Below the pieces are notes generated by a model, which saw only the letters and a program-made list of their open reading frames with translations, was not told the DNA's origin and ran no database searches. From NCBI GenBank assembly GCA_947631655.1, contig CANRME010000002.1, positions 1 to 52,812 on the forward strand: DNA of 52,812 nucleotides. Direction: 5' to 3'. Each line of letters starts with the position of its first letter. Position 1 is the first letter of the stretch. This DNA is from an uncultured Bacilli bacterium (lineage in GTDB: Bacteria; Bacillota_I; Bacilli_A; RF39; UBA660). Below are positions 1,987 through 36,337 of this stretch, in pieces. The translations under genes were made by a program, and so were the position numbers.

Positions 1987-2532
1987 ATGGGATGGATATA
2001 TGCTTTATTAGTTATTATTTTAATAGGTAGTGCATTAGGACTTGTTTATGTTGTTTGTTTTAATAAATTAAAAGAAAATGATATTAGAATTAAAGAAGCA
2101 GAAAGTATAATTGATGAATCTTTAAGAAATAAATATGACTTAATGATGCGTTTAGATTTGTTATTGCAAAAATATTTTGATAAAGATAAACCTTATTTTA
2201 AAGAGTTAAAAGAACTTAAAGGTCAAGAATTTACTTCCTTTACTTTAGATAGAAAGATAGAAGAAGCCGCTTTAATAGCTTTAAAGGTTATTAATGATGA
2301 AGATAATATTTTAAAAGAAGCTGATTATATAAATATTAGTAATGATATTAAAAAAGCTGATGAAAAATTATCAGCAGCTAAAAGTTTTTATAATAAATAT
2401 ACAACCAAGTATAATGCTTTAGTAAATCATTTCCCATCAAGTATTGTAGCAAAAGTTATTCATTTAGAAGAAAAAAGATACTATGATGGTAAAAATTTAA
2501 ATGACGATATTTACGAAGACTTTAAATTATAA
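1987..2532 (+). CDS. LemA family membrane protein
   Basis: Single N-terminal TM (IYALLVIILIGSALGLVYVV), then a helical domain. The C-terminal FYNKYTTKYNALVNHFPSSIVAKV is like the LemA signature (FYN..V..YN..I..FP.NI.A). Confidence 0.7.
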   Translation: MGWIYALLVIILIGSALGLVYVVCFNKLKENDIRIKEAESIIDESLRNKYDLMMRLDLLLQKYFDKDKPYFKELKELKGQEFTSFTLDRKIEEAALIALKVINDEDNILKEADYINISNDIKKADEKLSAAKSFYNKYTTKYNALVNHFPSSIVAKVIHLEEKRYYDGKNLNDDIYEDFKL

Positions 2533-10810: not shown

Positions 10811-10837
10811 AAAAGAGTGAAATTAATCACCCTTAGT
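10811..10837 (-). terminator. Right copy of the 27-bp repeat, acting as intrinsic terminator of the YfcC-like gene
   Basis: It lies 10 nt downstream of the stop at 10847. On the minus strand the hairpin AGGGTGA/TCACTCT (one G-U pair) is followed by TTTT. Confidence 0.6.
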
Positions 10838-10846
10838 TGCTTTATA

Positions 10847-12286
10847 TTATAGATACGCAATTACTACAAATACTAGTAATAAAATAACTAACATTGTAGC
10901 AAAGAATTTCCAAATAAATTTTAACCATGATTTATAAGAAACATCAGCATATGATAAGCCAGCCATTAAGATAACACTAGTTGGAACAACTAAACTTGCT
11001 AAACCATTTATACTTGGATATATAATCGCAATTATGTTAGTAAAATCAGTATAAGATGCTGCATAGAATGCTCCAACAGTATAACCAGTGAATCCAAAGT
11101 CGGAATGGAATAAAGTAGTTATGAAACTAGTTAAGGTTGTAATTATTGGATTGAATCCTTTAAATAAGTTTTCAATAAAGTTTACCATTGTTGGTACATT
11201 GTATGTTGCTGCTCCAAACATACAAACAGTATAGCAAAGAATAATGAATAGTGCTGGACGTAACATTTTTTTAACACCATCGAAGGCATTTTCTAATAAA
11301 ACATCAAATTTAACATGAGAGATAAATTTTAATAAGAAAGTCGATAACATAATGATTAAACTTATAACGTTCATATCCCAAGTACCAAAAGCACTAATAC
11401 CGCTACCTAAAATAGTAGTAATTATAGGGATATCACCTATTTTGACATCGGTTCTTAGCCAAGTATCGAAATCATTAAAGATATTTACTTTAAAGACGCC
11501 AGCGTAATCAACATATCCTAAAACAATAAAGATTAATAGTAAGCTAAAGATTAGAATTATTGGCCACGTATGCGCTTTACTACTCTTAGTTTCTGCTACC
11601 ATAAATTTATCAGTTTCAACTTCTTCTTTTAATTCTTTATTCTTTTTAGTAGTTATCTTATGAATATATAGAGCCATAAATAAAGCATATACAACATAAG
11701 CAATGACTAAAATACCAAATTTTAAGCCCATATCAACAGTTTGTTCTAAGCCTAAATTTTGTAGTAAGAAACTTAAACTATAGTTACCATAAGTGGTTCC
11801 AAGAATACCAATTAAAGCAGCTCCAAAGGTTGATGCTACTCCTACGACTTTACCAAGTCCTAATTTTAGAATAACACTTATAACGAATGGCGCAAAAACT
11901 AAAATAGGTAAAACTTCCATAGAAATTGAAGCATAAACGGCAAATAATAAAGATGCTAATAAAACGAATAGTAAAGGTTTATTTTCAAATGTCTTAGCAG
12001 TTTTAGATACTAGTTTACGATAACCATCAGTTCTTGATAAAACACCATAGAATGCTCCAACTACTAAGATAAATACAATATTTGGTAAATATGAATTTAG
12101 AACATAGTAAAATGGCATTCTAAATAAATCATCAAGTCCCAAACGATACATTCCGCTACTTGAAAAAGTTGCGCCACTAAATTGACCACCAGGAATAATC
12201 CAAGATAAAATAACAACAAGAATTAGAACTCCTAGTAGAACTTTAAATAAATCATGATTTTTAAACCATTGTTTTAATTTTTTCAT
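10847..12286 (-). CDS. YfcC/DcuC-superfamily integral membrane transporter
   Basis: About 12 hydrophobic segments. The N-terminus KQWFKNHDLFKVLLGVLILVVILSWIIPGG resembles YfcC-family proteins. Confidence 0.55.
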   Translation of the reverse strand: MKKLKQWFKNHDLFKVLLGVLILVVILSWIIPGGQFSGATFSSSGMYRLGLDDLFRMPFYYVLNSYLPNIVFILVVGAFYGVLSRTDGYRKLVSKTAKTFENKPLLFVLLASLLFAVYASISMEVLPILVFAPFVISVILKLGLGKVVGVASTFGAALIGILGTTYGNYSLSFLLQNLGLEQTVDMGLKFGILVIAYVVYALFMALYIHKITTKKNKELKEEVETDKFMVAETKSSKAHTWPIILIFSLLLIFIVLGYVDYAGVFKVNIFNDFDTWLRTDVKIGDIPIITTILGSGISAFGTWDMNVISLIIMLSTFLLKFISHVKFDVLLENAFDGVKKMLRPALFIILCYTVCMFGAATYNVPTMVNFIENLFKGFNPIITTLTSFITTLFHSDFGFTGYTVGAFYAASYTDFTNIIAIIYPSINGLASLVVPTSVILMAGLSYADVSYKSWLKFIWKFFATMLVILLLVFVVIAYL

Positions 12287-12331
12287 TTCTATCTCCTCCT
12301 ACTAAAATTATATCACAAGTTAGAAAATATA

Positions 12332-12372: not shown

Positions 12373-13851
12373 TTAATTATTTGGTTTCATTAATGGGAAT
12401 AAGACCACATCACGAATGGATGGTTGGTTATAAATTAGCATCATTAATCTATCAATACCAAATCCTAAACCAGAGATTGGAGGCATTCCTTGTTCCATAG
12501 CGCTAAGGAATGTTTCATCCATATCCATAGTTTCTTCGTCCCCTTGAGCTTTAGCTTTTAATTGGTCTTCAAAAGCATTTCTTTGAACTACTGGGTCAAC
12601 TAACTCACTATAAGCTTTGCATAATTCGGTACCACAAACTAGAACTTGGAAAACATCAATAATTCTTTTGTCTTTATCATTTCTTCTAGCTAGAGGAATT
12701 AAAACGGCAGGATAGTTATAGATAATCGTTGGTTCAATAATGTCAGCTCTAATTAATTTTTTATAGCAGAAATCAATTATTTGACTTAAACTTTTATATT
12801 CTTCTAATTCTGCATAGGTAAATAAACCTTTATCAACAATTTGTTTTTTTAGTTCTTCAGGTTCTTCAATACTTAAGAAATTAAAACCAAATTTTTTAGT
12901 CATTTCTTCAACGTAGTTAATTCTTTTCCAATTTTCTTTACCAAAATCCAATGTGTGTCCTTGGTATTCAATAGTAGTTGTTCCAACAAGTTCTTGTAAT
13001 AACCCTCTAATAAAGTTTTGATAGAATTTAATGTTATCTTCAAAATTCCAGTAAGATGCATACCACTCTACTTGGGTAAATTCTTGTAAATGTTCGGTAT
13101 CCATTCCTTCATTTCTAAAACATTTAGCAACTTCATAAACACGGTCATAACCAGCAGCGATACATTGTTTTAAGTAAGTTTCCGGAGCAATTCTTAAATT
13201 ACAATCGATATCTAGGGCATTATGATGAGTATAGAAAGGACGAGCAGAAGCACCACAGACAGCCGTTTGAATAATTGGAGTTTCTACTTGTAAGAAACCA
13301 TTTTCACCTAGAAATTTATGGATATATGCATATAACTTACTACGTCCTAAGAATACTTTACGGGCTTCTTCGTTCATGATTAAATCGACGTATCTTTCGC
13401 GATATTTAATTTCCGTATCAGTAAGACCGTGGAACTTTTCAGGTAGTGGTCTTAAGGCTTTACCGAGGAATTCAAAAGTATGAACTCTTAGGGTTTTTTC
13501 ACCAGTTTGAGTAGTAAATATTTCACCTTTAGCACCGATAAAATCACCAATATCAATAAGTTTTTTAAAGAAATCATATTTTTCTTCACCAACTTCATCG
13601 ATTTTAAATTCTAATTGCATATCACCTTCAATATCTCTAATTCTTACAAAGGAAAGTTTTCCCATTTTTCTAGCAAAAACAATTCTTCCGGCAAGAGAAA
13701 CATCTTTAGTACCATCTTCTAAGGCACGGGCATCTTTTAGAGAATGCGTTTTTTCATATCTTTCAGGATAAGGATTACAAATCTCTCTTATCTTTTCTAC
13801 TTTTTCCATTCTTACTTGTTCTTGTTCACTATATTCTTTCATAAGTTTCAC
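12373..13851 (-). CDS. lysS: Lysine--tRNA ligase (class II)
   Basis: OB-fold N-terminal domain; class II motifs FRNEGMD and GLGFGIDRLMM; typical length of 492 aa. Confidence 0.95.
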   Translation of the reverse strand: MKLMKEYSEQEQVRMEKVEKIREICNPYPERYEKTHSLKDARALEDGTKDVSLAGRIVFARKMGKLSFVRIRDIEGDMQLEFKIDEVGEEKYDFFKKLIDIGDFIGAKGEIFTTQTGEKTLRVHTFEFLGKALRPLPEKFHGLTDTEIKYRERYVDLIMNEEARKVFLGRSKLYAYIHKFLGENGFLQVETPIIQTAVCGASARPFYTHHNALDIDCNLRIAPETYLKQCIAAGYDRVYEVAKCFRNEGMDTEHLQEFTQVEWYASYWNFEDNIKFYQNFIRGLLQELVGTTTIEYQGHTLDFGKENWKRINYVEEMTKKFGFNFLSIEEPEELKKQIVDKGLFTYAELEEYKSLSQIIDFCYKKLIRADIIEPTIIYNYPAVLIPLARRNDKDKRIIDVFQVLVCGTELCKAYSELVDPVVQRNAFEDQLKAKAQGDEETMDMDETFLSAMEQGMPPISGLGFGIDRLMMLIYNQPSIRDVVLFPLMKPNN

Positions 13852-13895: not shown

Positions 13896-15797
13896 TTATT
13901 TTAACTTTAAGTCTAATTTATTAACGTCTAAGTCTAAATCAGTATCTAATTTTATTCTATCAATTTCGGTGATGATACTATCGATTTCGGTAATATTATC
14001 ACTAACTTTTTGTTTATTCTTTATGACGTCTATAAGAGTAAGTAATCTTTGATAATAATTTTTTAAAGCGATATTAATCTCTCTATAACTTAACTTATTA
14101 GGACGATTATAAACAAAATTTATATAATCAACCGCAATATCTCTTACTTGTTCTTGGTCAATACTAGAATGTTCATAATCATTATTCTTAATCATATTGA
14201 TAACTTTGATAATATCTTTAATAAACATATCTTTTTCAATAATAGAATTATCTACGGAAGGATTTTTTAAAGCATCTTTAATACTTTTATTAATAGTTAA
14301 AACTTTTTCGCTAGTATTTTGCTTTTTAGAAAATGATGATTCGATAGTATATTCGCGACCATAAAAATCTTTAGTTTCAGCATTTAATTCTAAATTAGGT
14401 TTATAATTTGGACTTCTATGAATATATTCTACATAATCTGTGGCTAGTTGTTTTAGATCCGCAATATCTTCTTCACAATCTTTATAAGGATTATTTTGAA
14501 TATATGCAATATTTTGCATTATATCTTTAATAAAACTATCTACTCTAGTTTCTTCTTTCCCTTTAGACGATTTACCTTCTTTTATTTCGGCTATTCTATC
14601 TTTTAAATTAGGCACATATACATCTTTTAAAGTTTTATTACCTTTAATTATAGGGGGAAGGTAACAAGAAGATAATGATAGAAATAAACTTAGAGGAATA
14701 TTTCCTGTAATAAGATGGGAAATAGTATATACGACCATATAAATAGCAATTTGAAATAGGGATATTTGAATATCTATACGACCTAATTCGTCAGCAGGAC
14801 AGCTATTCATTTTTTTCTCTTCTATTTTGTGAAAGTAAGATAAGATACTATATAATAATTTATGATGTTTAATTCTATTTAAAATATTATTTAAATAAAT
14901 TTTAGAAGATTCTTTGGCATACAAATTTCTTTTAGAACCAGCATTTAAATCATTAGCTATTTCTAAAGACCCCAAGTATTTAATGTTAATATTTTCTTTT
15001 AATTGGTCTTCTTCTATTTTATAATATACTGGTGTATTATCATCTTCATTTTGGTTATTTTTATCATAAATTAGGCTATCTAACTTTTCTATACTATGAG
15101 CGATACGATATTTAGATTGTTCTGATTTTATTTTTTCTTTAATGTTTTTTAATCTATTTTTTAATTCTTCTTGTTTATTACCTAATGTTAAAACAAAATT
15201 AGTACTTTCATCTTGATATTTTAGATACTCTTCACTTAATTCTTGTAAACTAATTAGTTCTTCTTTACAACTTGGATAAGAATTTACTTTTATAGCATTA
15301 ATAGTATCCACAATTTCTTCTAAGAAATTATCATTTAATTGAACTTTTTTTACAATATTTTTTTCTTCTTCACGATTAATGAAACTTAAAGCATTAGTAA
15401 GAACCTGCTCACATTCATAATATTTTTGTTTAGCACTTTTAAAACTTAAAATTTTTATCAATAGTTTAGAAGCACATCTTGATCCCATAAATATAGAAGA
15501 AATAAAGATTACTAAAGCATCAATATATGGTATTATACCTAAAGGGAAAAGAGAACTTAAAATGGCAAAAACTAAAGCACAACAAAAAGCAATTAGAAAA
15601 TTCATTCCTATATCTAGTGAACCAATATCATAAAACGTATTTTCTCTTTTTCTTAAAATTTTAAGATAAGCATTTTTATTATTTTTTAAATCTCTATAAG
15701 ATGCTTCTACTTTTTCTTTAGTAAAATAATAATTATAAAAATGTTCAATATAGGATATATTATCAGATATTTCTTTTTCCCTTTCTTTTTTCATCAT
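13896..15797 (-). CDS. Paralogue 1 (most divergent) of an uncharacterised 4-TM helical-repeat membrane protein
   Basis: It has the same architecture as the two upstream genes. It carries three copies of the DxF(I/L)(K/E)(D/E)I..I..I..N.Y....(D/E)...L...(A/S).(D/E)Y motif, two TM hairpins and the C-terminal tail LDLDVNKLDLKLK. It lies only 22 nt after paralogue 2. Confidence 0.7.
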   Translation of the reverse strand: MMKKEREKEISDNISYIEHFYNYYFTKEKVEASYRDLKNNKNAYLKILRKRENTFYDIGSLDIGMNFLIAFCCALVFAILSSLFPLGIIPYIDALVIFISSIFMGSRCASKLLIKILSFKSAKQKYYECEQVLTNALSFINREEEKNIVKKVQLNDNFLEEIVDTINAIKVNSYPSCKEELISLQELSEEYLKYQDESTNFVLTLGNKQEELKNRLKNIKEKIKSEQSKYRIAHSIEKLDSLIYDKNNQNEDDNTPVYYKIEEDQLKENINIKYLGSLEIANDLNAGSKRNLYAKESSKIYLNNILNRIKHHKLLYSILSYFHKIEEKKMNSCPADELGRIDIQISLFQIAIYMVVYTISHLITGNIPLSLFLSLSSCYLPPIIKGNKTLKDVYVPNLKDRIAEIKEGKSSKGKEETRVDSFIKDIMQNIAYIQNNPYKDCEEDIADLKQLATDYVEYIHRSPNYKPNLELNAETKDFYGREYTIESSFSKKQNTSEKVLTINKSIKDALKNPSVDNSIIEKDMFIKDIIKVINMIKNNDYEHSSIDQEQVRDIAVDYINFVYNRPNKLSYREINIALKNYYQRLLTLIDVIKNKQKVSDNITEIDSIITEIDRIKLDTDLDLDVNKLDLKLK

Positions 15798-15819
15798 TTA
15801 TCTCTCTTTCTATTACTTT

Positions 15820-17739
15820 TTACTTTAACTTTAATTCTAATTTATTAACATCTAGATTTAAATTATTATCTAATTTTATACCATCATTAATAGTTATTGT
15901 TGTAATATCATCTATATCTTCAATATTATCGCTTATTTTTTGTTTATTTTTTACTTTGAATACTACATTGTTTAATTGATAGTAATATTTCTTCATTTCG
16001 CTATTTATTTCTTCATAAGTATGAACACTTCCAAGTTTCCAATTAAGATAGTTTACTAAAATTCCTCTAGCCTCTTGTAATTCGTTATTAGAATAAGGAT
16101 AATCATTAGCTTTAATAGCATTTATTACTTTAATTATATCTTTGATAAAGACATCATTGTTAATAAGATAGTTATCAGTTTCGGGTTTATTTAAAGCTTC
16201 TTTAAGAGCTTTATTTATTTCAATAATATCTTGTTCTCTTTTTCTACTTTGATACATATGCATTTCAATTTCATATTGACGTTCATAAAAATCATATATA
16301 TCTTGATTGATTTTCAAAGTAGCATTATCGGCATATTGATAAGTAAACTCTGCATAATCTCTAGCTATTTCGTTTAAAGTAACAATATCTTGTTCACAAT
16401 CTTTATAGGGATGAGCTTTAATATATTCTATATCAGAAAATAAATCTTTTATAAAACTATCAACTTTTTTATTTTTAAAATTTTCTTTTATCTCATCTAT
16501 TCTTTTATCTCTATTTATTTCGTAACCAGTTTTTAATACTGATTTAAAGATTTTTTGTTCTTCCATATATCCTTTGTGTTCAGCCATATATGATTCCATT
16601 TTCTTTAATTCTTTATTTAAGTTATGCTTACCAATCAACATGCTAGGTACGAGGTAACAAATAATAGCACTTACTAAAGAAGTTATAATAATATGTCCAC
16701 TAGAAAACGCTAGAAATGGATTTATAATGGCGAAAAGCAAGCCAGAAATCCAGTTAGGTTTTTTATATTTATAGATATAAGACCAAAAAGTATACTTAAA
16801 ATTATGTTTATTAATTTCTTTATAATATTTAGTTACTTTCTCCATTTCTTTATTAATTGATGGTGAACTCCAATTCCTTGAAGTACGATTATTATATTGG
16901 TCAATTTTATCTAAGCTTTCTTCAGCTTCTTTAAAAATATTACGATATGGAGAAACGTTAATTCCTTTTGATGATTTTTGGTTGAGTGTTACTTTTTCCC
17001 CCACAATTAATTTATCTATTACTCTTAAAACGTTTTTTATTTTATAAGTTTGTTGTTTTGAAGATACTCTATCTTCTATTTCGTCTAAGCGTTTAGTAAA
17101 TTCATCTTTTTGATTAGTTAAAGATAGTTCTAAATTTGTATTATTATTTTGATAAGAAATATATTCTAAAGCTAAAGTTTGTAAAGATAATAATTCTTCT
17201 TTAGCAGTTTCATAAGAATTATATTGAATGTCTTTTATGGTGGAATAAATTTCTTGTAAAAAGGAATCAGTTAAAATTTCACTTTGATAATTTTCTTTTA
17301 TAGGTTTATCTAAATTATTAGTAAAACGTTCAACTAAATTATTATAAATTAGTCTAGCATAAGCTTTACGCCATTTGCTTTGGTATAGTTTTTCTAGAAT
17401 CCGGGTGTTTATAAGAATTGAAGGAATGATGGTTCCAATGACCATTTCTATTATCATGATATTGGTCATTGGTAAGACAGCAGGCGATAAAAGAATTATT
17501 CCACCTACAACAATATAAAAAATAAATAATGCTGCTTGTGAAAGAATAACATCATTAGAATCTAATTTATTTTGGAAAATGTTTGCTTTTTCACTAGACA
17601 AAATCATTTGCATAACTTCTTTTTTATGAGTTGTTAAAAAATTATGCATATCATTAAGAGCATCTCTATCTAAATCTAGTTTTTTTATATTACCATCTAA
17701 AATATCTTTAATAATAGATAATTCATTTCCATCTTCCAT
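15820..17739 (-). CDS. Paralogue 2 of the uncharacterised 4-TM helical-repeat membrane protein
   Basis: 639 aa, with RBS GGGGGA. TM hairpins are at about aa 65-115 and about aa 330-370. The motif copies are DSFLQEIYSTIKDIQYNSYETAKEELLSLQTLALEYISY, DSFIKDLFSDIEYIKAHPYKDCEQDIVTLNEIARDYAEF and DVFIKDIIKVINAIKANDYPYSNNELQEARGILVNYLNW. The tail is LNLDVNKLELKLK. Confidence 0.7.
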   Translation of the reverse strand: MEDGNELSIIKDILDGNIKKLDLDRDALNDMHNFLTTHKKEVMQMILSSEKANIFQNKLDSNDVILSQAALFIFYIVVGGIILLSPAVLPMTNIMIIEMVIGTIIPSILINTRILEKLYQSKWRKAYARLIYNNLVERFTNNLDKPIKENYQSEILTDSFLQEIYSTIKDIQYNSYETAKEELLSLQTLALEYISYQNNNTNLELSLTNQKDEFTKRLDEIEDRVSSKQQTYKIKNVLRVIDKLIVGEKVTLNQKSSKGINVSPYRNIFKEAEESLDKIDQYNNRTSRNWSSPSINKEMEKVTKYYKEINKHNFKYTFWSYIYKYKKPNWISGLLFAIINPFLAFSSGHIIITSLVSAIICYLVPSMLIGKHNLNKELKKMESYMAEHKGYMEEQKIFKSVLKTGYEINRDKRIDEIKENFKNKKVDSFIKDLFSDIEYIKAHPYKDCEQDIVTLNEIARDYAEFTYQYADNATLKINQDIYDFYERQYEIEMHMYQSRKREQDIIEINKALKEALNKPETDNYLINNDVFIKDIIKVINAIKANDYPYSNNELQEARGILVNYLNWKLGSVHTYEEINSEMKKYYYQLNNVVFKVKNKQKISDNIEDIDDITTITINDGIKLDNNLNLDVNKLELKLK

Positions 17740-17765
17740 ATATATCCCCCAAGACAGTATTGCTT

Positions 17766-17794
17766 ATTCTACTATAATTACCTTTAAAAGTAAA
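17766..17794 (-). promoter_or_regulatory. Putative promoter of paralogue 2 (duplicated copy of the paralogue 3 promoter)
   Basis: Minus strand reads TTTACT, 17 nt spacer, TAGAAT. The whole ~65-nt leader is roughly 85 percent identical by eye to 19752-19815. Confidence 0.4.
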
Positions 17795-17822
17795 GATATA
17801 TTGATATACCAATAATAAATTA

Positions 17823-19751
17823 TTATTTTAACTTTAATTCTAATTTATTAACGTCTAAGCCAAGATTAGCATCTAATTCTACACCATCTTGAAGAGTTAA
17901 TTTCATAACATTATTTATATCTTTGATATTATCACTGATTACTTGTTTATTTTTTACTTTGAAAATAACATTGTTTAATTGATAATAATATTTCTTCATT
18001 TCTCTATTTATCTCTTCATAGGTATGATACTCTACAAATCTCCAATTAAGATAGTTTACTAAAATTCCTCTAACTTCTTGTAATTCATTATTAGAATATG
18101 GATAATTATTTGCTTTAATGGCATTTATTACTTTAATTATATCTTTAATAAAAATATCATTATTGATAAGGAAGTTATCAGTTTCGGGGTTATTTAAAGC
18201 GTCTTTAAGAGCTCTATTTATTTCAACTATATCTTTAACTTGGTTTTGTTTTTGCATCATATGATATTCTATCTCATATTGTTTTTTATAAAAATCATAT
18301 ATACCTTGATTAATTTTTAAAGTAGGATTATCACTATGATTATACATATATAAAGCATAATCATTTGCAATTGTATTTAAGTCAATAATGTCTTTTTCAC
18401 AATCTTCATAGGGATGAGCTTTTATAAGTTCAATATCATAGTATAAATCTTTTATAAAACTATCAACTTTTTTATTTTTAAAATGACTAGCTATTTGTTC
18501 TAAGCCTTTATCTCTATCACGTTCTTTATCAGTTTTAAGAAGGGATTCTGTATCTTTTTGACCTCTTTGATACCTTTCACTTTGTTCAATATAACCTTTT
18601 AAGATAGAAAGGTCATTTTTCAAACATTTACTTCCCAGATAAAACATTGGAGCAATATAAGTAGAAACAAAAGCTAATAAAGCACTAAGAATAATATTTC
18701 CGTTTATACCTGTTAAGAAAGGATTAATAACTAAGAGAGGATTAACAACAGCAAAAACTAAGGCGAAAAGTAGAGTATCGATTCCCTTAGAATTATGTAA
18801 ATAAGACCAAAGTGTATATTTTAATCTGTGTTTTTTCATTCGGTTATAAATCTTAACTAATTTAGAGTATTTAATGGCTAACTTTTCATAGCTAATTTCA
18901 TTACTAGTTAGTTTATCTATTTCATCAAGATCATTATAACCTTTATCACTATCACTTAAAAAATCTAATTCAATTGATTGTTCTTTTTCTTTTAATTCTT
19001 CTACTTTTTCTCCCTTAATTAATTTATCAATTACTCTTAATACATTTTCTATTTTATAATTTTTTTGATTAGTTTTAACCTTTTCTTTAATTAATTTTAA
19101 ACGATTTTCAAATTTTTCTTTTTGGTTAGTTAAAGTTAAATCGACAACTTCCTTATTTTGGTTTTTATAATCTATATATTCTAATGCTAAAACTTGTAAT
19201 TCTTGTAATTCCATTTTAGCAGTTTTATAAGAATTATTTTGAATATCTTTAATAGTAAGATAAATTTCTTGCAAAAAATTATCAACTATATTATTGTTTA
19301 AAGATACATTTAAATTTAACTTATTATCTCTTTTGGCAAAAAACTTAACCATATTATTATAGGTTTCTTTAGCTTTTTTATTAATGATTTTTCTTTGATA
19401 TAAATATTCTAAAATTTGAGAATTAATAATTAATAATGGAAAGATAGAATTTATTGTAAATCTAATCAACATTAAAACATTGCTAGAATTAAAAGGCCAC
19501 TCGCCTAATAGGGCAAAAGCACCATAAAAAGTTGAAAGGCCAAAACTTATAAGGAAACTAAGTACTAATGTTTTAAAGTTTGGCATAGTTTCTAAAAGTT
19601 TTCTTTTTTCATTAGCTTTGATTTTTTTAATAACTTCCTTTTTATCATTTATTAGACAATCATAAATATGCTCAGCTGCTTCTTTATTATAAGATTTTAT
19701 ATTACCATTTAAAATGTTTTCAATAGCATGTAATTCATTTTCATAATTCAT
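17823..19751 (-). CDS. Paralogue 3 of the uncharacterised 4-TM helical-repeat membrane protein
   Basis: The likely start is the ATG at 19751 (MNYENELHAIENIL), 5 nt after GGGGGA; the track start at 19769 is a TTG. The C-terminal ~230 aa are about three-quarters identical to paralogue 2 by eye. Confidence 0.7.
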   Translation of the reverse strand: MNYENELHAIENILNGNIKSYNKEAAEHIYDCLINDKKEVIKKIKANEKRKLLETMPNFKTLVLSFLISFGLSTFYGAFALLGEWPFNSSNVLMLIRFTINSIFPLLIINSQILEYLYQRKIINKKAKETYNNMVKFFAKRDNKLNLNVSLNNNIVDNFLQEIYLTIKDIQNNSYKTAKMELQELQVLALEYIDYKNQNKEVVDLTLTNQKEKFENRLKLIKEKVKTNQKNYKIENVLRVIDKLIKGEKVEELKEKEQSIELDFLSDSDKGYNDLDEIDKLTSNEISYEKLAIKYSKLVKIYNRMKKHRLKYTLWSYLHNSKGIDTLLFALVFAVVNPLLVINPFLTGINGNIILSALLAFVSTYIAPMFYLGSKCLKNDLSILKGYIEQSERYQRGQKDTESLLKTDKERDRDKGLEQIASHFKNKKVDSFIKDLYYDIELIKAHPYEDCEKDIIDLNTIANDYALYMYNHSDNPTLKINQGIYDFYKKQYEIEYHMMQKQNQVKDIVEINRALKDALNNPETDNFLINNDIFIKDIIKVINAIKANNYPYSNNELQEVRGILVNYLNWRFVEYHTYEEINREMKKYYYQLNNVIFKVKNKQVISDNIKDINNVMKLTLQDGVELDANLGLDVNKLELKLK

Positions 19752-19778
19752 AAAAATCCCCCATGACAAGTATTGTTT

Positions 19779-19807
19779 ATTCTACTATAAATACTTTTAA
19801 AAGTAAA
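19779..19807 (-). promoter_or_regulatory. Putative promoter of paralogue 3
   Basis: Minus strand reads TTTACT, 17 nt spacer, TAGAAT. It sits back-to-back with the ABC promoter 9 nt away. Confidence 0.4.
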
Positions 19808-19815
19808 TATATAAC

Positions 19816-19844
19816 TTGTCTTAAGCTAAGATATTTTTTATAAT
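19816..19844 (+). promoter_or_regulatory. Sigma-A-type promoter of the ABC gene pair
   Basis: TTGTCT (19816-19821), exactly 17 nt spacer, TATAAT (19839-19844), followed by RBS GAGGAAG and the ATG at 19862. Confidence 0.55.
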
Positions 19845-19861
19845 ATAAATACGAGGAAGTT

Positions 19862-21247
19862 ATGAAAAAGAATTTAAAATATATTATACCTACTTTAATT
19901 ATTAATACTTTGATTATTTTAAATATAATTAATTTTAAAATTAGTTTTATTTCTTTTTTTAATTTGATAATTTTGTCTAGTTTTTCTCTATACTTGACAG
20001 CAAGTCTTACTTCTAAAATAACAATATCTTTACATACCAATTTCTTAGCTTCTTTTTATAAGCCGAATATATCAGAAAATTTAGAACACAAAATAAATAA
20101 CATCTATAATATTGAACAAAGTATATTTATATATTTTTTTACTTTACTATATGGTTCTTTACATAGTTTAATATATTTTATTTATAGTTTTTATAATAAT
20201 ACCTATCTTTATATAATGATTATTTTTATCTTAACCCTTGGTTGGTATAAATATCGAAAAAGATATAATACTATTTTTTCTAATGAAAATTACATAAAGG
20301 GAATTAATATAATTAAACTAGCTAATAAAGAAGATAAAGAAAAGAAAGAATTAAAATATAGATTTCATAATTATCTTATTCAAAAAAGAAAGATGGTTAT
20401 TTTAGAAAGTATTTATTTACTAACTTTATTTATTTTATTAATTATTGGAAAAAATATATATTTAGTTACTTTTGTCATCCCTTTATTATGTATACTTTAT
20501 AAAGCAGACGAATTAGATACGGCTTATGGTTATATTAGAAACTATAATAATTTTTATAATATACCTAAATATAAAACATTATCTGATTTTAATAACTTAA
20601 TTACTTTAAAAAATGTTAATATTCATAACTTTAATGATTTAACAATTACTTTTCCTAAAAATCATGTTTGTATGATATATGGTCCTTCTTTGAGTGGCAA
20701 AACTACAATATTAGATGTTCTTGCTAATCGAATAAATATAAATAATGGCGAAATAATTGTGGATAACAAACGACTTATCCACAAGAAACTTAATACTTCT
20801 TACATGCGCCATGATGATTATTTATTTTCTAATTCTTTAAAAAAATTATTTTTAGAATTAAATTCTAAAACAAACGAAACAAGGATTCATTTTTGGTTAA
20901 AACAAGTAAATGCTGAATATTTTACTTATGACTTACAAAAGATTATTACTAAAAATGGCGATAAATTAACGAAAGAAGAACAAAGTAAATTAAAAATAGC
21001 TCTAAATTTAATAAAAGATAGTAATATTTTATTATTTGATGAACCATTTAAGTATTTAGATACTAATACTATTAAAAGAATTACTGCTAATTTAAGATAT
21101 TTAAGTAATACAATTATTATAACGACTAACGACTATGCACATTTAAAATTTGCGGATTCCGTTTATATTATTGACGATAATAAATTATTATATAGTGGTA
21201 CTTATAAAGATATACCCGATTATTTAGAAAGGAAGTATAAAATATGA
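19862..21247 (+). CDS. ABC exporter half-transporter (compact TMD fused to NBD), divergent signature motif
   Basis: The N-terminal ~240 aa are hydrophobic, with an exporter-like coupling region (GINIIKLANKEDKEKKELKYRF). Walker A is GPSLSGKTT and Walker B is ILLFDEP. LTKEEQ stands in place of LSGGQ. Confidence 0.75.
   Translation: MKKNLKYIIPTLIINTLIILNIINFKISFISFFNLIILSSFSLYLTASLTSKITISLHTNFLASFYKPNISENLEHKINNIYNIEQSIFIYFFTLLYGSLHSLIYFIYSFYNNTYLYIMIIFILTLGWYKYRKRYNTIFSNENYIKGINIIKLANKEDKEKKELKYRFHNYLIQKRKMVILESIYLLTLFILLIIGKNIYLVTFVIPLLCILYKADELDTAYGYIRNYNNFYNIPKYKTLSDFNNLITLKNVNIHNFNDLTITFPKNHVCMIYGPSLSGKTTILDVLANRININNGEIIVDNKRLIHKKLNTSYMRHDDYLFSNSLKKLFLELNSKTNETRIHFWLKQVNAEYFTYDLQKIITKNGDKLTKEEQSKLKIALNLIKDSNILLFDEPFKYLDTNTIKRITANLRYLSNTIIITTNDYAHLKFADSVYIIDDNKLLYSGTYKDIPDYLERKYKI
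20757..20784. promoter_or_regulatory. Back-to-back pair of perfect DnaA-box consensus 9-mers forming a 10-bp inverted repeat
   Basis: TTGTGGATAA (20757-20766), 8 nt spacer, TTATCCACAA (20775-20784). TTATCCACA is present on each strand. The pair lies inside the ABC gene coding sequence (EIIVDNKRLIHKK). Confidence 0.5.
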
Positions 21248-22596
21248 TAGCAGTAATTATAACTTTTTTACTACCTTATTTATATATTTTATTAAATAAT
21301 AAATTTTGGTTATTATTAATTTATATAGTTTTATACAGTATATCTTTTTATATAGCAAGTGATTATATCTTAAAAAAATTGGTTAATATTTTATTAGACA
21401 AAAATGAAAATATAAATTTATATCTTAAACTAAGTATTATTTATTTATTCTTAGTATCTAATATACCTATTTTAATTTATAACTACCCTATTTTCTTATT
21501 AAGTCTTACTATGGTAGTAATATTATATACAATTAATATTTTCGTTTTTAAACTTTTTAATAAATATGTAAGTAATAAATATTTGATAAGTAACTATTTA
21601 AAAGAATGTTACTTAGAAAAAGATACCGCATTAAATAAAGGAACAGTTAATATTAGAATTGATTCTTTTAAAAAATATTTAAAAAGATATAAACATAATT
21701 TATTTAAGAGATTGTTTTATTCTAGTATTATTTATTTAATTAATTTTATTTATGTTATATTAATTATCTATTTATTAAAAGACTTTACTATTGTAAATAT
21801 TATTTTAACTTTATATATGAGTGTTTATAGTTATTTATTTATTAAATATTTAAAATATATTAAAGGGTATTATAAAATATTTAAGCATAATAAAGAAGAC
21901 AATAAAAAAAGGACTACTTCCTTTAAAAAGATTACTCTTAAAAATATTTCTATTCCTAATTTAGTTACTAACTTTAATTTAACTATTAATAATAACGATA
22001 AAATATATATTATAGGAGAAAATAAAGATTATACTCCTTTACTTAATACTTTATTAAATAAGAATAATTATTTAGGAAAAATAACAGTTGATAGAAAAGA
22101 TATTAAAAATATAGATCTAAGTGCATTATTAATGTTAGATTATAATAATTTATGGTTTAAGGAATCTACTATAATTGATAATATTTTATACAATAAAGTT
22201 CTTAATTCTAAAAATTTTCACCAGTTAATCAATACTTATTTACCTAATAATTTTATAGAATCATTTATTAATGAAGAAGGGACAGAAATTAAAAATGTTT
22301 ATGACTACCCTATTTATTATCAAAGATTAATTACGTTTATGAGAAGTATTAATACTGATAAAGATATTATAATATTAGATAAGCCATTTAATAATTTAAG
22401 TAAATATAATCAAAATATTATGGAAAAAGAATTAGCAAAATTAAATAAAACTATAGTAATTTTTAGTAATACTCCTCCTACTTTAGATAGCTATTCTAAA
22501 ATACTTTTATTAGAGAACTTACTAATAAAAGAAGAAGGAACATATAATGAATTAATTAAAGAAAAAAGAGATTTCTACCGATTAATTAATAGATAA
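21244..22596 (+). CDS. ABC exporter half-transporter with degenerate nucleotide-binding site
   Basis: Its start overlaps the upstream stop (ATGA). The hydrophobic N-terminal half is followed by an NBD-like half with degenerate motifs. Walker A is replaced by GENKDYTP, the signature by PIYYQ, and Walker B by IIILDKP (D-K instead of D-E). Confidence 0.65.
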   Translation: MIAVIITFLLPYLYILLNNKFWLLLIYIVLYSISFYIASDYILKKLVNILLDKNENINLYLKLSIIYLFLVSNIPILIYNYPIFLLSLTMVVILYTINIFVFKLFNKYVSNKYLISNYLKECYLEKDTALNKGTVNIRIDSFKKYLKRYKHNLFKRLFYSSIIYLINFIYVILIIYLLKDFTIVNIILTLYMSVYSYLFIKYLKYIKGYYKIFKHNKEDNKKRTTSFKKITLKNISIPNLVTNFNLTINNNDKIYIIGENKDYTPLLNTLLNKNNYLGKITVDRKDIKNIDLSALLMLDYNNLWFKESTIIDNILYNKVLNSKNFHQLINTYLPNNFIESFINEEGTEIKNVYDYPIYYQRLITFMRSINTDKDIIILDKPFNNLSKYNQNIMEKELAKLNKTIVIFSNTPPTLDSYSKILLLENLLIKEEGTYNELIKEKRDFYRLINR

Positions 22597-22606
22597 TCTC
22601 TTTTTA

Positions 22607-23471
22607 TTATACATTTATGTTAGCTTGATTAGTTTTTAGTTTGTTTAGTTGTTTATTAGTTAAACCTGTAGCTTTTAATATTATTTCTGGTTGGACTCCT
22701 AAATTTAATAAATTTCTGGCATTATTAATTTTTTCAGTTTGAGCACCTTTTTTAACACCTTTTTTAAGTTCTTCTTTTAGTTCTTCTTTATGACGGTCTC
22801 TTATGGAATTCATCATCCATTCGTGTTCTTCATCAACATCTCGGTATCCATATGGTATATCCATTGCATCATAGTGAATCATCTCTCTTATAACATCTTT
22901 CAAAATATCATCTCCTCTACTTATTTTTATTAATTCTTCTTCATCTTCTAATATCATTATTTTTAGGTATTTTAATATCTCTTCTTTTACACTTTTAGTA
23001 TATTTTTTGCTTTGCAATTTGTCAAGTTTTATGTGATATATTTCTATATCTATTGGATACTCTTTTCCTTTATTATCTTTTAATGTATATTTATTAATTA
23101 ATTTATCTCCTACTTTTCCATTGAAATCAAAGTTTAATAACAAATATTTCTGCCCTATGGGATATTTCTTATTCTTTCTATTATTTTGATTATGTATAGA
23201 AAATAAGTAACTTATATTTTTTCTATATATTCTCTGGAAGGATTTTTATTCATTTCTAATATTATATTAAAGTCGTTTATTTTAGTAATAATATCACTTC
23301 GATGATGTTTATTTTTTCTATAATCTTCTTTTAAATTAGTATCTAGATATTTTAAATCTTCTAGTTCTTCTAAAGGTATATCGGTTATATAATGGATTAA
23401 TCTTTTTACATATTTTTTTTATAAGTTATTATATGAGCAAATACTAAATCGTCAATCATAGCTTTAATCAT
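22607..23471 (-). pseudogene. PD-(D/E)XK nuclease family transposase-like gene (PDDEXK_2 / Rpn-like), disrupted by two -1 frameshifts
   Basis: RBS AAAGGAG and the ATG at 23471 give MIKAMIDDLVFAHIITYKKNM, then a stop. Restoring one A in the A8 run (plus-strand T8, 23413-23420) gives ...RSDIITKINDFNIILEMNKNPSREYIEK. Restoring one A in the A6 run (23217-23222) joins this to the 178-aa ORF 22607-23143. The reconstructed product is ~289 aa, which is typical for the family. Confidence 0.7.
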
Positions 23472-23522
23472 AATATTTCTCCTTTCAGTAAGAAGAACTA
23501 TACACTAAAGAAAATGAAATGT

Positions 23523-23569
23523 AAAATTGCAGATTTTGCGAGTTTGGGCTCCAAATTAGAAAATTGGTA
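23523..23569. repeat. Copy 1 of a ~50-nt non-coding repeat with an internal palindrome
   Basis: aaaattgcagattttgcgagtttgggctccaaattagaaaattggta shares cagattttgc and ctccaa(a)tt..aaaattggta with 23675-23731. Confidence 0.6.
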
Positions 23570-23674
23570 TTTCCCGAACATATGGGAAACTTTTAAAACT
23601 TTATCACACCAAAAATATCTTACAAAGTAAGGTATAATCTAAGTTTAATTAATATTTATTAAACTTTTAAAATC

Positions 23675-23731
23675 AAAATACAGATTTTGCTCATTTTTTA
23701 AGAAAAAGCCCTCCAATTTTAAAAATTGGTA
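23675..23731. repeat. Copy 2 of the ~50-nt non-coding repeat (contains the palindrome ccaatttt/aaaattgg)
   Basis: aaaatacagattttgctcattttttaagaaaaagccctccaattttaaaaattggta lies immediately downstream of the 442-aa gene stop. It may double as that gene's terminator. Confidence 0.6.
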
Positions 23732-23743
23732 AAATTTAATTTT

Positions 23744-25072
23744 TTACGTTGATAAAACATAAGGACTTTCATATGTGCCATCACCACTTAAGACCTTCAC
23801 ATTTGATTTTAAATATAAAGTTGGTCTAACTATATATGGCGTAGTAGTGTAAGCTTGATAAACAAGCCCAGTACCACCCACAATGTGTGTAACGCAAGCA
23901 CATGACCATCCGATCGGCATAATTACCCATTGTGATCTACTCAATAACCAACTATTTCCGGCACAATTGGTTCTATAATCGTCTTTATTCCATGTATATA
24001 GTGCGGAATTTAAACATCCATTTCTATTAGTTGTTTCATTACCTTCTAAACCACTAGTTGCATATGCATAATCACTGGGATATATTAAGCCGATATATCC
24101 ATCCCATGTTGTGGGCAATCCAGGGGATACAAGTATACCTCTTTCCTCTTCATAAAATTGAGCAGCATCTGAATCTATGTATTCTTCGGGTCCACCGATG
24201 TTCCATCTTACTTTTTCGATCATTTCTTTAGTATTTGCTGTTATTCCTTTATAATTATCATTTCTTGTGTTGGAGCCGACAATACTTGTATATTCTGCTT
24301 CAGTTATCCAAGTGCCATCATCGGTTTTTTCTAAATATGGCCCATTTAATCCTTTCTGCAAACTTGCTTCCGCCCAATTATTTTTGTTTGAACTATCCCA
24401 TGCAATAAGTCCTATACTATCAGCTCTGATTATCTTTACTAAATTTTCTTTAGTGGTTGTTTCGTCAGCATTTACTTTTTCAATGTTCTTAAATGAACCA
24501 ATAATCCTCCATCTTTCACATGTTTCTTCTGAAGGAGCACTATAATCATCACAATTAAACCAAATGTAATTTGCTGGTTCTTTACCATAATATCTAGCAT
24601 TACTATCTGGATCATCAAAAGCTAATTCTTTATTATATTGTAATTCTTTCTTTAATAAGCATTCTGACATTTCTGTATCTTTACATATCGCTGCTTTAAA
24701 GGGATTACTGGTAAATTTAATATTACATCTATTAGGTTTATCTAGTTTTAATTCTAGTTTCCATGTTTCACTATTAAAACTAGCAGTTATATCTTCATTT
24801 TCACATTCTATTCCTTCATATAAATATCCTTCTTCTTTAGAGGGAAAATCTTCTTGTTTTTTATTATCAACATAAACAGCTAATTGTATATCTTTACTAT
24901 AGAATTTATCTACAGTAGTATATATAATTCTTTTATTATATTTTATTTGATATAGTGCATAACTACTTCCTATGGCTACTATTAATAGTAATAAACATAC
25001 ACCTAATATTACTTTATTTTTATTTCCTTTTTGAATTTTTCTTAATTCTTTTTCTGGATTAAATACTCTCAT
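23744..25072 (-). CDS. Membrane-anchored extracellular protein, 442 aa, family not recognised
   Basis: N-terminal basic region plus one TM (VILGVCLLLLIVAIGSSYALY). The extracellular part is Cys/Trp-rich and ends in YIVRPTLYLKSNVKVLSGDGTYESPYVL, a motif I associate with secreted Firmicute proteins of unknown function. Confidence 0.6.
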   Translation of the reverse strand: MRVFNPEKELRKIQKGNKNKVILGVCLLLLIVAIGSSYALYQIKYNKRIIYTTVDKFYSKDIQLAVYVDNKKQEDFPSKEEGYLYEGIECENEDITASFNSETWKLELKLDKPNRCNIKFTSNPFKAAICKDTEMSECLLKKELQYNKELAFDDPDSNARYYGKEPANYIWFNCDDYSAPSEETCERWRIIGSFKNIEKVNADETTTKENLVKIIRADSIGLIAWDSSNKNNWAEASLQKGLNGPYLEKTDDGTWITEAEYTSIVGSNTRNDNYKGITANTKEMIEKVRWNIGGPEEYIDSDAAQFYEEERGILVSPGLPTTWDGYIGLIYPSDYAYATSGLEGNETTNRNGCLNSALYTWNKDDYRTNCAGNSWLLSRSQWVIMPIGWSCACVTHIVGGTGLVYQAYTTTPYIVRPTLYLKSNVKVLSGDGTYESPYVLST

Positions 25073-25149: not shown

Positions 25150-25176
25150 TGCAATAATCTAGTTATGGTGATTTTA

Positions 25177-25398
25177 ATGGATATATCAAGATTAAAAGAT
25201 ATTAGAGAAGATCGAGATTATAATCAAACGCAGATTGCAAAGATATTAAATACAACCCAACAACAATATTCAAAATATGAATTAGGTATTCAATTAATAC
25301 CAATTGATAGATTAGAAAAATTAGCTGATTTTTATGACTTAAGTATAGATTATATAATAGGAAGAACGAATGTGCGGAAACCTTATCCTAAAAAATAA
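25177..25398 (+). CDS. XRE/Cro-C1 family helix-turn-helix transcriptional regulator
   Basis: RLKDIREDRDYNQTQIAKILNTTQQQYSKYELG...IPIDRLEKLADFYDLSIDYIIGRT is a classic HTH_3 pattern. The ATG at 25177 is preceded by GGTGA; the track start at 25165 is also possible. Confidence 0.85.
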   Translation: MDISRLKDIREDRDYNQTQIAKILNTTQQQYSKYELGIQLIPIDRLEKLADFYDLSIDYIIGRTNVRKPYPKK

Positions 25399-25573: not shown

Positions 25574-26488
25574 TTGATTTTGATAAATATGTACCCTATG
25601 GATTTTGAAGAGTTTTTAATTGCTTTTAATCAAGAAGCTTTGTTAGATAAAATTAAATATTGTTTTCAAAAGAATGAACCTATGGGTATTCTTCATAATA
25701 AAGCAGTAGATTATTATAGAAGATATTTATTATCAGGCGGAATGCCAGATAGTGTTAAAAATCTACTCAATTGTGGAGATGATTATTATAACTATGATTT
25801 AGCAATATTAGATAATATTATAGAAGACTATTTAAATGATATGAATAACTATGTTAGTAATTCTAGTGAAACTTTGAGAATTAGAAAGATATATAATTCT
25901 TTATCATCACAATTACAAAATACTTCTAAAAAATTTCAATATTCAGTTATTGATAATGGAGCTAAAGCAAGAGAATATGCACAACCATTAAATTGGTTAA
26001 TAGAAAGTAATATGGTCCAAATGTGTAAATGTGTTAAATTACCTGAAAAACCATTATTAGGATTTGTAGACAATGATACATTTAAAATATATTATTCTGA
26101 TGTAGGTGTATTTAATAGATTATTAAATAATGATATAAAAACGATTATTTTAGATGATATGAAAATTTACAAAGGAATTATTACAGAAAATTATGTTGCT
26201 AACGAATTAAAAGCTAATGGAACTGAATTATTATATTGGAAAGGGACTAGAAACTCTGAAATAGACTTTTTAATTTCCACAAGAAATGACGGAATAATAC
26301 CTATTGAAGTTAAAGCCGATATTCATACCCAATCCAAGAGTTTAAGCGTTTATAAAGATTTATATCATCCTAAATATATGATTAGAATTAGTTTAAAAGA
26401 TTTTGGATTTGAAAACGATATTAAATCTGTTCCTTTATATGCAACATTTTGTATTAATAATAAATATTTAGACCGTGATGAAAACTAA
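25574..26488 (+). CDS. DUF4143-domain protein, a 5'-truncated remnant of an AAA-ATPase (AAA_14+DUF4143) gene
   Basis: The ORF begins at the family's inter-domain motif (YPMDFEEFLIAF...YYRRYLLSGGMPDSV). It continues through the DUF4143 region (KIYYSDVGVF) and the C-terminal nuclease-like part (EIDFLI...IPIEVKA). No Walker-A domain is encoded upstream. Confidence 0.7.
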   Translation: MILINMYPMDFEEFLIAFNQEALLDKIKYCFQKNEPMGILHNKAVDYYRRYLLSGGMPDSVKNLLNCGDDYYNYDLAILDNIIEDYLNDMNNYVSNSSETLRIRKIYNSLSSQLQNTSKKFQYSVIDNGAKAREYAQPLNWLIESNMVQMCKCVKLPEKPLLGFVDNDTFKIYYSDVGVFNRLLNNDIKTIILDDMKIYKGIITENYVANELKANGTELLYWKGTRNSEIDFLISTRNDGIIPIEVKADIHTQSKSLSVYKDLYHPKYMIRISLKDFGFENDIKSVPLYATFCINNKYLDRDEN

Positions 26489-26509: not shown

Positions 26510-26532
26510 AAGCTGCGATTAAGCAGCTTTTT
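26510..26532 (-). terminator. Intrinsic (bidirectional) terminator, probably the ancestral rpmE terminator
   Basis: Stem aagctgc/gcagctt with loop gattaa, flanked by A6 on one side and T5 on the other. The right arm and loop are part of the 20-bp direct repeat. Confidence 0.6.
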
Positions 26533-26537
26533 GATTA
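26518..26537. repeat. Left copy of a 20-bp direct repeat bounding the rpmE-3' cassette
   Basis: attaagcagctttttgatta is identical to 28255-28274. Confidence 0.9.
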
Positions 26538-36335: not shown

Positions 36336-36337
36336 AG

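Follow-up and report, generated by a model that had tools for sequence, protein, structure and literature searches.

The window analyzed here is the whole 52,812-nucleotide (nt) stretch of contig CANRME010000002.1 (assembly GCA_947631655.1), from an uncultured gut Bacilli bacterium of the RF39 lineage. Directly upstream of lysS, it carries a block (positions 13896 to 22596) in which three large paralogous membrane-protein genes lie next to a divergently oriented pair of ABC half-transporter genes. The paralogue genes are all on the minus strand: paralogue 3 occupies 17823–19751 (642 aa, or 648 aa from a TTG at 19769), paralogue 2 15820–17739 (639 aa), and paralogue 1, the most divergent copy, 13896–15797 (633 aa). 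The lysS gene (12373–13851) follows 44 nt 3′ of paralogue 1 on the same strand. The start of paralogue 3 at ATG 19751 is also used by its orthologues P0003 and P0004 and is preceded by the Shine-Dalgarno sequence GGGGGA. On the plus strand, ABC half-transporter genes A (19862–21247, 461 aa) and B (21244–22596, 450 aa) overlap by 4 nt (21244–21247), and 110 nt (19752–19861) separate the paralogue 3 ATG from ABC A. The GC content is 16–25% within the block versus about 27–35% across most of the remaining DNA. An earlier note on this DNA, made from the sequence alone, had given the same coordinates, sizes, overlap and spacing, and alignment and hydropathy analysis reproduced the four-transmembrane (TM) layout and near-invariant C-terminal tail that it had described for the paralogues. 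End-to-end alignment of the paralogues gave 51% and 35% identity, far above chance.

The four hydrophobic segments of each paralogue form two tight TM hairpins, as judged by hydropathy. They lie at residues 62–109 and 324–371 of paralogue 3 (nt 19425–19568 and 18639–18782), at residues 66–112 and 331–368 of paralogue 2 (nt 17404–17544 and 16636–16749), and at nt 15462–15608 and 14646–14777 in paralogue 1. The hairpin loops are 2–10 residues long and contain no Lys or Arg, and each flank has 2–5 of these residues, so that by the positive-inside rule both termini are predicted to face the cytoplasm, along with approximately 85% of the chain. What the earlier note had listed as three helical motifs proved to be copies of a single three-helix unit of ~85 residues, which we named the R domain. 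It follows the consensus xDxF[IL]xxIxxxIxxIxxNxYxxCExELxxLxxLAxEY, after which comes a third helix with FxxRLxxIE; the form used to define the family is F[IL]xxIxxxIxxI-x4-YPxCExDLxxLxxLAxEY plus the third helix, downstream of a tight TM hairpin. Each copy was independently detected by a hidden Markov model (HMM) with domain E-values of 1e-18 to 1e-29, three per window paralogue (nt 19032–19286, 18213–18467 and 17907–18161 in paralogue 3; 17017–17271, 16210–16464 and 15904–16158 in paralogue 2; 15081–15335, 14289–14543 and 13980–14234 in paralogue 1). The C-terminal peptide LDVNKL(E/D)LKLK was invariant in six of six full-length sequences; by alignment it reads LDVNKLELKLK in paralogue 2 (15823–15855) and occupies 17826–17858 and 13899–13931 in paralogues 3 and 1, respectively. 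An AlphaFold2 (AF2) model of the full-length protein was all-helical but poor (pLDDT 62.7, pTM 0.29). The model of residues 420–639 (pLDDT ~80 across its residues 10–180, pTM 0.55) contained two three-helix units and a disordered tail, suggesting that the C-terminal peptide is probably unstructured.

None of the three genes could be assigned to a known family, as the earlier note had maintained; profile, structure and billion-scale searches all ended without a match to a described family. Specifically, Pfam gave no matches on the window paralogues, and no Pfam or NCBIfam model reached its curated threshold on the paralogues and 13 relatives. Neither PADLOC nor PHROGs matched the paralogues, and sequence-profile searches of the PDB gave no match (best E-values of 2.3 with the full-length alignment and 0.19 with the R-domain alignment). 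A Foldseek search of the full-length AF2 model against the PDB was empty, and that of the domain model against the PDB and BFVD yielded nothing below E = 1, the best PDB matches being generic three-helix bundles with E > 2. Proteins of the PspA/IM30, flotillin, TelA/XpaC and EzrA types were among those that gave no Pfam or NCBIfam match and no PDB Foldseek match below E = 1. Two candidate links were rejected. Only one of the 16 members, the distant P0036, matched S_4TM (E = 1.9e-4, 21.4 bits versus a gathering score of 26.9), and the other 15 gave no match; an NCBIfam match to the Inc family (E = 0.016, 14.6 bits versus a cut-off of 240) was attributed to chance. Among the literature on similar systems, we found only a general review of polymorphic toxins (PMC3482391).

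Relatives were also extremely rare. A word-indexed search of 5.8 billion proteins returned just four clusters, and an exhaustive HMM scan of 1.84 billion representative proteins returned 11 members. Pattern scans of 185,579 GTDB species representative genomes, IMG/VR and JGI metagenomes found no relatives, and no family member came up when six-frame open reading frames (ORFs) from 80 related species, taken up to 10 kb either side of lysS, were scanned with an HMM. A word-index search with the 86-column R-domain profile returned nothing, this profile being too short for the size of the database. As for signs of prophage or mobile cargo, there was no PHROG match for the paralogues, no relative in IMG/VR and no long flanking repeats; the only mobile-type remnants near the block were an Rpn C-terminal fragment, a truncated DUF4143 gene and an rve integrase. 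Judged from these comparisons (Pfam, NCBIfam, PADLOC, PHROGs, PDB and BFVD), the paralogues are a genuine membrane-protein family, hitherto undescribed and of extremely narrow distribution, that falls outside every described kind with which they were compared.

We compared the block with that of L003, a close relative from the same sample series as the window, whose lysS protein is 98.8% identical. For lysS, the synonymous divergence (dS) was 0.55 and the ratio of nonsynonymous to synonymous divergence (ω) was 0.016. In L003, just one paralogue separates ABC A from lysS; it is 70% identical to paralogue 2 (dS 0.58, ω 0.30). The similar dS values indicate that the block has been vertically inherited, and its proteins evolve about 20–30 times faster than lysS, with ω values of 0.33 for ABC A, 0.45 for ABC B and 0.47 for a neighboring 442-aa protein. 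This rate was not uniform along the paralogue. Between paralogue 2 and its L003 orthologue, ω was 0.12 in R2–R3 (88% amino acid identity) and 0.05 in the last 39 residues (85% identity), showing that the R domains and the tail are under strong purifying selection. For hairpin 1, the amino acid identity was 27–29%, and ω was not computable because synonymous differences (pS) were saturated.

The divergent part forms a hypervariable cassette at 17425–17592 (minus strand; residues ~50–105 of paralogue 2), which comprises a juxtamembrane stretch, TM1, the outer loop and most of TM2. In 60-nt windows, its nucleotide identity to the L003 and L095 orthologues was 32–57%, versus 87–97% in the flanks, with the drop at about nt 150–330 of the coding sequence. 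The pS was 0.60–0.74 inside the cassette, that is, saturated, and 0.11–0.25 in the flanks; the window, L003 and L095 strains thus carry three unrelated hairpins. As synonymous sites are saturated only inside the cassette and within sharp borders, this pattern reflects wholesale segment replacement between close strains rather than relaxed drift. The converse mosaic was seen between paralogue 3 and its orthologue in L094, in which the first 1.2 kb are 95–100% identical and the last 0.5 kb 68–88% identical, which indicates that paralogues or alleles have exchanged segments. No silent copy that could have served as a donor of the cassette was found in the available DNA. A diversity-generating retroelement was not indicated either, as no reverse transcriptase occurred among the genes scanned and the cassette is unalignable rather than point-mutated.

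The 110-nt divergent intergenic region contains candidate promoters for both units, in line with the back-to-back promoters that the earlier note had proposed. The paralogue promoter candidate (minus strand) has a −35 element TTTACT (19802–19807) and a −10 element TAGAAT (19779–19784) with a 17-nt spacer, followed by the GGGGGA Shine-Dalgarno sequence. The ABC candidate (plus strand) is TTGTCT-17-TATAAT (19816–19844), and the facing −35 elements are 8 nt apart. Note that a generic promoter scan performed at chance in this AT-rich DNA (108 sites versus 108.4 expected); the promoter assignment is instead based on sequence conservation, since the intergenic region is 93–95% conserved among the window, L003 and L095, while the coding DNA on either side is much more diverged. 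A second copy of the paralogue promoter lies in the 83-nt gap before paralogue 2 (17740–17822; −35 at 17789–17794 and −10 at 17766–17771, minus strand) and is 91% identical to 19769–19813, suggesting that the duplication unit carried its own promoter. Paralogues 3 and 2 thus each appear to have a conserved promoter, and their transcripts are predicted to begin about 7 nt beyond the respective −10 elements. The gaps between paralogues 2 and 1 and between paralogue 1 and lysS are only 22 and 44 nt, respectively. No terminator-like site was seen between paralogue 1 and lysS in a terminator scan, as the earlier note had also stated, so that the array is likely read through into lysS.

The intergenic region was also informative where the two units are apart. 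L094 keeps only the paralogue half, with no ABC A start within the 370 nt available upstream of its paralogue 3 orthologue, and L004 (GCA_947623855.1) keeps only the ABC half. In L004, the ABC pair (67% and 66% identity) has an ATP-grasp gene and rpiB upstream and no paralogue. The promoter halves therefore split cleanly, each traveling with its own gene, and the paralogue and ABC units, though adjacent in three strains, are modular and separable. In L094, the paralogue 3 orthologue is followed, in place of paralogue 2, by a 233-aa protein (2427–3128, plus strand) with an N-terminal coiled coil, a TM hairpin and a helical C-terminus; its architecture resembles that of the family, but it lacks an R domain and has no detectable homology.

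More distant members of the family are shorter. P0030 and P0032–P0037 have 263–464 aa, and further members have 526 and ~470–490 aa in L088 and 503 aa in L091. Each of these starts with a helical stretch and has R domains with a YP(G/N)CE motif; the number of R domains was one or two in all 12 members examined besides the window paralogues. A hydrophobic pair precedes the R domains in all distant members except P0034, where no clear hydrophobic segment was seen; it is mostly a tight hairpin, with the two segments ~45 residues apart in the L091 member. Several distant members finish in a similar alternating-Leu tail. Given that modules consisting of N-terminal helices, a hairpin and one or two R domains persist elsewhere as proteins of 263–526 aa, the 640-aa form looks like a fusion of two such ancestral modules.

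Tandem arrangement also extends beyond the window. In L088, an array of three members is followed by a DUF4143 AAA ATPase gene, a gene for a 647-aa protein, lysS and rpsL-rpsG-fusA. Although similar in size to the window paralogues, the 647-aa protein (10384–12327, plus strand) is not related to them; it lacks TM segments and belongs to no Pfam family. L091 and L093, which are identical in this region, have two members each directly downstream of rpoC, and L090 has two members in tandem. No ABC genes were found on the available DNA around the arrays of L088, L090, L091 and L093, and we conclude that the ancestral family is ABC-independent. Copy number also varies over short distances, with three paralogues in the window and one in L003 despite the 98.8% identity of lysS.

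The ABC exporter is atypical, as the earlier note had recognized. Subunit A has a TM domain (TMD) of ~245 aa followed by a nucleotide-binding domain (NBD) that matched PF00005 with 57.8 bits (cut-off 25). Its Walker A (GPSLSGKTT) and Walker B-Glu (LLFDEP) motifs are intact, but the signature is degenerate (LTKEEQ) and the canonical Q-loop Gln and H-loop His are absent. Subunit B, which ends in a pseudo-NBD, gave no Pfam match and has lost all catalytic motifs: the Walker A position reads GENKDYTP without Lys, Walker B reads ILDKP without Glu, and there is no signature and no H-loop. Its C-terminal half nevertheless aligns to exporter NBDs, as seen with NCBIfam CydD (E = 3.7e-14) and in a joint PDB profile. 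Neither subunit therefore has the canonical set of Walker A, Walker B-Glu, LSGGQ, Q-loop and H-loop, and this degenerate pattern is kept in three orthologue pairs under purifying selection. The NBD profile was closest in the PDB to ABCB1, TM_0288 and PCAT1. The TMDs of ~240 aa did not match PF00664 (ABC_membrane); their hydrophobic segments fit about six TM helices, of which only the last aligns to exporter models. Close homologues of the pair were found in a handful of assemblies only. In L095 (676–1987, plus strand), ABC A is split into ORFs of 285 and 147 aa on a contig with 2.9x coverage, which represents either a frameshift (pseudogenization in one strain) or an assembly error.

In TM287/288, LmrCD and BmrCD, the half-transporter genes are likewise adjacent, overlapping and co-oriented, with the TMD N-terminal and the NBD C-terminal, and one subunit likewise lacks catalytic motifs. 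Unlike these, the present pair has ~240-aa TMDs without PF00664 and two degenerate signatures; in addition, subunit A lacks the Q-loop Gln and H-loop His, and subunit B lacks the Walker A Lys and Walker B Glu. The pair is best described, as far as its motifs indicate, as an extreme variant of the degenerate-site heterodimeric ABCB-like exporters. It is a separate transcription unit with its own candidate promoter, and its adjacency to the paralogues is lineage-specific. Signs of a bacteriocin or lantibiotic locus were lacking: Pfam and NCBIfam scans found no precursor peptide, C39 peptidase, modification enzyme or LanFEG-type immunity gene. Small ORFs in 23144–23743 had no leader-like features, and the intergenic gaps of the block are 22–110 nt. 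Scans with Pfam, NCBIfam, PADLOC and PHROGs and the small-ORF checks thus bore out the earlier note, which had seen in the block neither a precursor peptide or modification enzyme nor a two-component system or phage gene.

The block lies among core, origin-proximal genes, namely dnaB, an M23/LysM peptidase gene, murA, rpmE, prfA, argS, parB, mnmE, mnmG and a gene for a class A PBP. The cumulative GC skew reaches its minimum (−3.00) at ~36000–36800, and gene orientation flips between 36338–36724 (minus) and 36781–38724 (plus); with parB, mnmE, mnmG and dnaB close by, this is probably the replication origin region. The closest lysS relatives among GTDB species representatives (89–85% identity) come from "Lapin-…" metagenome-assembled genomes (MAGs), and those at ~80% identity include Clostridium sp. 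CAG:302, UMGS "Tenericutes" MAGs, Ca. Scybalousia and Ca. Aphodocola. No tRNA genes or Rfam families were found in the window. An rve-type integrase gene of an insertion sequence (IS) element (9783–10766, plus strand) lies between a DcuC-like transporter gene and the gene for a 608-aa family-less protein (7776–9602, minus strand). The rplI-dnaB-M23 cluster is on the opposite side of lysS compared with L012, L014 and L017, suggesting an IS-associated rearrangement.

Directly after ABC B lies a 178-aa ORF (22607–23143, minus strand) whose match to the recombination-promoting nucleases of the Rpn family (TIGR01784, E = 1.6e-7, under the cut-off) is limited to their C-terminal part. It is absent from L003 and is either a remnant or a stand-alone C-terminal Rpn fragment. 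The 442-aa protein mentioned above (23744–25072, minus strand) consists of a membrane anchor at the N-terminus and a Cys-rich body that is probably extracellular; no Pfam family matched it, and its sole match was a local one to an unknown PHROG. Its gene is divergently paired with a gene for a 77-aa XRE-type HTH protein (25165–25398, plus strand). Two such pairs occur in L003 (445 and 435 aa; 50% identity, ω 0.47), and relatives with 34% identity are found near lysS in L021 and L023. This protein represents a second fast-evolving unassigned family of the same island. The DUF4143 protein of the window (25574–26488, plus strand; 304 aa) is without its AAA_14 ATPase half and aligns to residues ~140–440 of the PADLOC candidate PDC-S01 (E = 5.5e-87). 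In L003, the gene is intact (442 aa; 94.6% identical across the common part), as is a copy directly after the three-member array of L088. Farther away, three large ORFs had no Pfam match (26519–27922, minus, 467 aa; 40341–42230, plus, 629 aa; 49938–51818, minus, 626 aa), 47072–49924 encodes a 950-aa zinc-ribbon and VWA protein, and 51818–52729 encodes a zinc-ribbon and Yip1 membrane protein. The listed L31 ORF (28256–28537, minus strand) has an N-terminal extension of ~23 residues ahead of its Pfam match, and its true start is probably the internal MKKNIHPD.

Taken as a whole, the explanation that we prefer has a descriptive part and a mechanistic part, and we give it a probability of roughly 0.35. 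The descriptive part, in which we have high confidence, is that the three genes are tandem duplicates of a new family of hairpin-anchored, cytoplasm-facing R-domain proteins with a variable membrane cassette. The mechanistic part is offered tentatively. The paralogues would be cytoplasmic adaptors tethered to the membrane by their hairpins, with a specificity cassette inside the membrane. The conserved R domains and the C-terminal peptide, whose disordered, alternating-Leu character resembles a docking motif, may bind a conserved cytoplasmic partner, and the exchangeable hairpin would act as the specificity element in the membrane or at its outer face. This combination of conserved R domains, peptide and exchangeable hairpin suggests a role of the recognition, immunity or exclusion type, and the array would then be a diversified recognition set for conflict or self-protection rather than an ABC-dependent export machine. 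A more specific version, which we consider doubtful, is a recombining recognition system in which different TM1-loop-TM2 cassettes, carried on a conserved signaling or adaptor chassis of three R domains and a docking peptide, each recognize a different agent that inserts into the membrane (for example a bacteriocin, a toxin or a phage membrane protein), and in which tandem duplication and gene conversion diversify the repertoire.

Several described systems share some of these features. Pore-forming colicin immunity proteins recognize toxin helices inside the membrane. Polymorphic-toxin and bacteriocin immunity arrays likewise consist of tandem paralogues with strain-dependent copy number and recombinational replacement of a membrane-embedded specificity segment; however, no toxin, LXG/WXG or secretion gene lies near the paralogues and no homology was found, and the paralogues, a large part of which is conserved and cytoplasmic, exceed the typical size of immunity proteins five- to tenfold. 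S-4TM/SLATT proteins (PF18159 and related) likewise join TM hairpins to helical cytoplasmic segments in fast-evolving loci, but no SMODS/CD-NTase or other signal-generating partner was found among the scanned genes, the paralogues are much larger, and S-4TM/SLATT families lack the triplicated R domain. Chlamydial Inc proteins, which are type III secretion substrates inserted into the host vacuole membrane, offer an analogy of architecture only. Their hydrophobic hairpin is bilobed and leaves both termini on one side, their soluble domains are helical or coiled-coil, and they form large, fast-evolving paralogous families; among the window genes scanned there was no type III secretion gene, and without homology the likeness is compositional and architectural. 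EzrA, with its spectrin-like repeats, also combines an N-terminal membrane anchor with repeated cytoplasmic helical bundles of ~85–100 residues, whereas the paralogues have two hairpins instead of a single TM segment, a hypervariable anchor, an extremely narrow distribution and no sequence or Foldseek match to it.

The proposal of the earlier note that the paralogues and the ABC pair are one functional unit was upheld only as far as their conserved adjacency in the window, L003 and L095 is concerned. In such a unit, the hairpins of the paralogues would mediate contact with the ABC TMDs, and the paralogues would work as accessory, regulatory or sensor subunits in export, envelope stress or immunity, like Bce-type intramembrane-sensing partners. 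The divergent pairing in three distinct strains, the intergenic region that stays 93–95% conserved between much more diverged genes, and the fast evolution of both partners (ω 0.28–0.45 for ABC and 0.30 for the paralogue) fit this arrangement. The separations fit it poorly: the ABC pair stands alone in L004, the paralogue 3 orthologue of L094 has no ABC start within 370 nt, the arrays of L088, L090, L091 and L093 are ABC-free on available DNA, and each gene retains only its own intergenic half when apart. In addition, no NCBI-sourced family member was returned, although the proteins of the L004 assembly were included in the database. We therefore regard a single unit as unlikely. Quite unlikely, too, is that the paralogues are housekeeping scaffolds in which three-helix repeats of the spectrin/EzrA kind organize division, chromosome or translation machinery at the inner face and the TM anchors are merely unconstrained. 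Such a role would suit the location next to lysS, dnaB, parB, mnmE and mnmG, the tight, terminator-free co-orientation with lysS, the arrays that a distant lineage keeps between rpoC and lysS/rpsL, the purifying selection on R domains and tail, and the all-helical AF2 model with its three-helix units. It would not be expected of a family that was found neither at the lysS loci of 80 related species nor among 185,579 GTDB representatives, that varies between one and three copies in strains with 98.8% identical lysS, and that matched EzrA, PspA, flotillin and the like in neither sequence nor fold; saturated synonymous divergence within sharp borders is also unlike mere relaxed constraint.

Membrane-disrupting abortive-infection or defense effectors resembling S-4TM/SLATT, with the DUF4143 AAA ATPase as sensor and the XRE proteins as regulators, would account for the fast-evolving island with its variable copy number, for the DUF4143 ATPase (PDC-S01) near arrays in the window, L003 and L088, and for the weak S_4TM match of P0036 (21.4 versus 26.9 bits). 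This match is, however, confined to one of 16 members and under threshold, PADLOC matched no paralogue, and no cyclase, SMODS or other signal generator occurred among the genes scanned (window 4388 to 30439; L003, L088 and L091). The DUF4143 copy of the window is truncated to 304 aa without AAA_14, and as DUF4143 genes are very common in gut Firmicutes, their adjacency could plausibly be due to chance. Likely constitutive read-through into lysS would also be odd for a toxic effector, and we consider this reading very unlikely. Finally, a very AT-rich block without database annotations could consist of decaying duplicates or spurious ORFs, but the three ORFs of ~1.9 kb are unbroken and have orthologues in other assemblies, the promoter and Shine-Dalgarno sequence are conserved, and motifs are kept down to relatives with 15–20% identity. 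Moreover, ω is 0.30–0.32 overall, and values of 0.05–0.12 in the conserved domains exclude the lack of purifying selection that the earlier note had raised as a possible objection, so that a non-functional origin is effectively refuted.

Several points also weigh against the membrane-tethered adaptor explanation itself. The adaptor and specificity model is drawn from conservation patterns, and an array that sits in the core genome and is likely transcribed together with lysS could serve housekeeping just as well as conflict. Functional coupling with the ABC pair in this lineage could still explain why the two units lie side by side in three strains and share an intergenic region conserved at 93–95%. 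A remote link of the paralogues to a known family may exist beyond the level of comparison offered by Pfam, NCBIfam, the PDB and BFVD. TM anchors often tolerate substitution, but such tolerance would not saturate synonymous sites within sharp borders. The cassette is defined by three strains only, and all sequences come from metagenome assemblies, some at 3–5x coverage.

The practical impact is limited for now, given an uncultured host and a very rare family whose role is proposed from sequence. If the adaptor explanation is true, diversifying replacement would be aimed at a membrane-embedded hairpin instead of a surface domain, on a strongly conserved cytoplasmic module, which would be an unusual case. 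The paralogues would then represent a new architecture among bacterial recognition and self-protection proteins, with a new domain of ~85 residues and a C-terminal docking motif to look for. The ABC pair alone is a case of extreme NBD degeneration still under purifying selection, and the family illustrates the extent of lineage-restricted biology in uncultured small-genome gut Bacilli.

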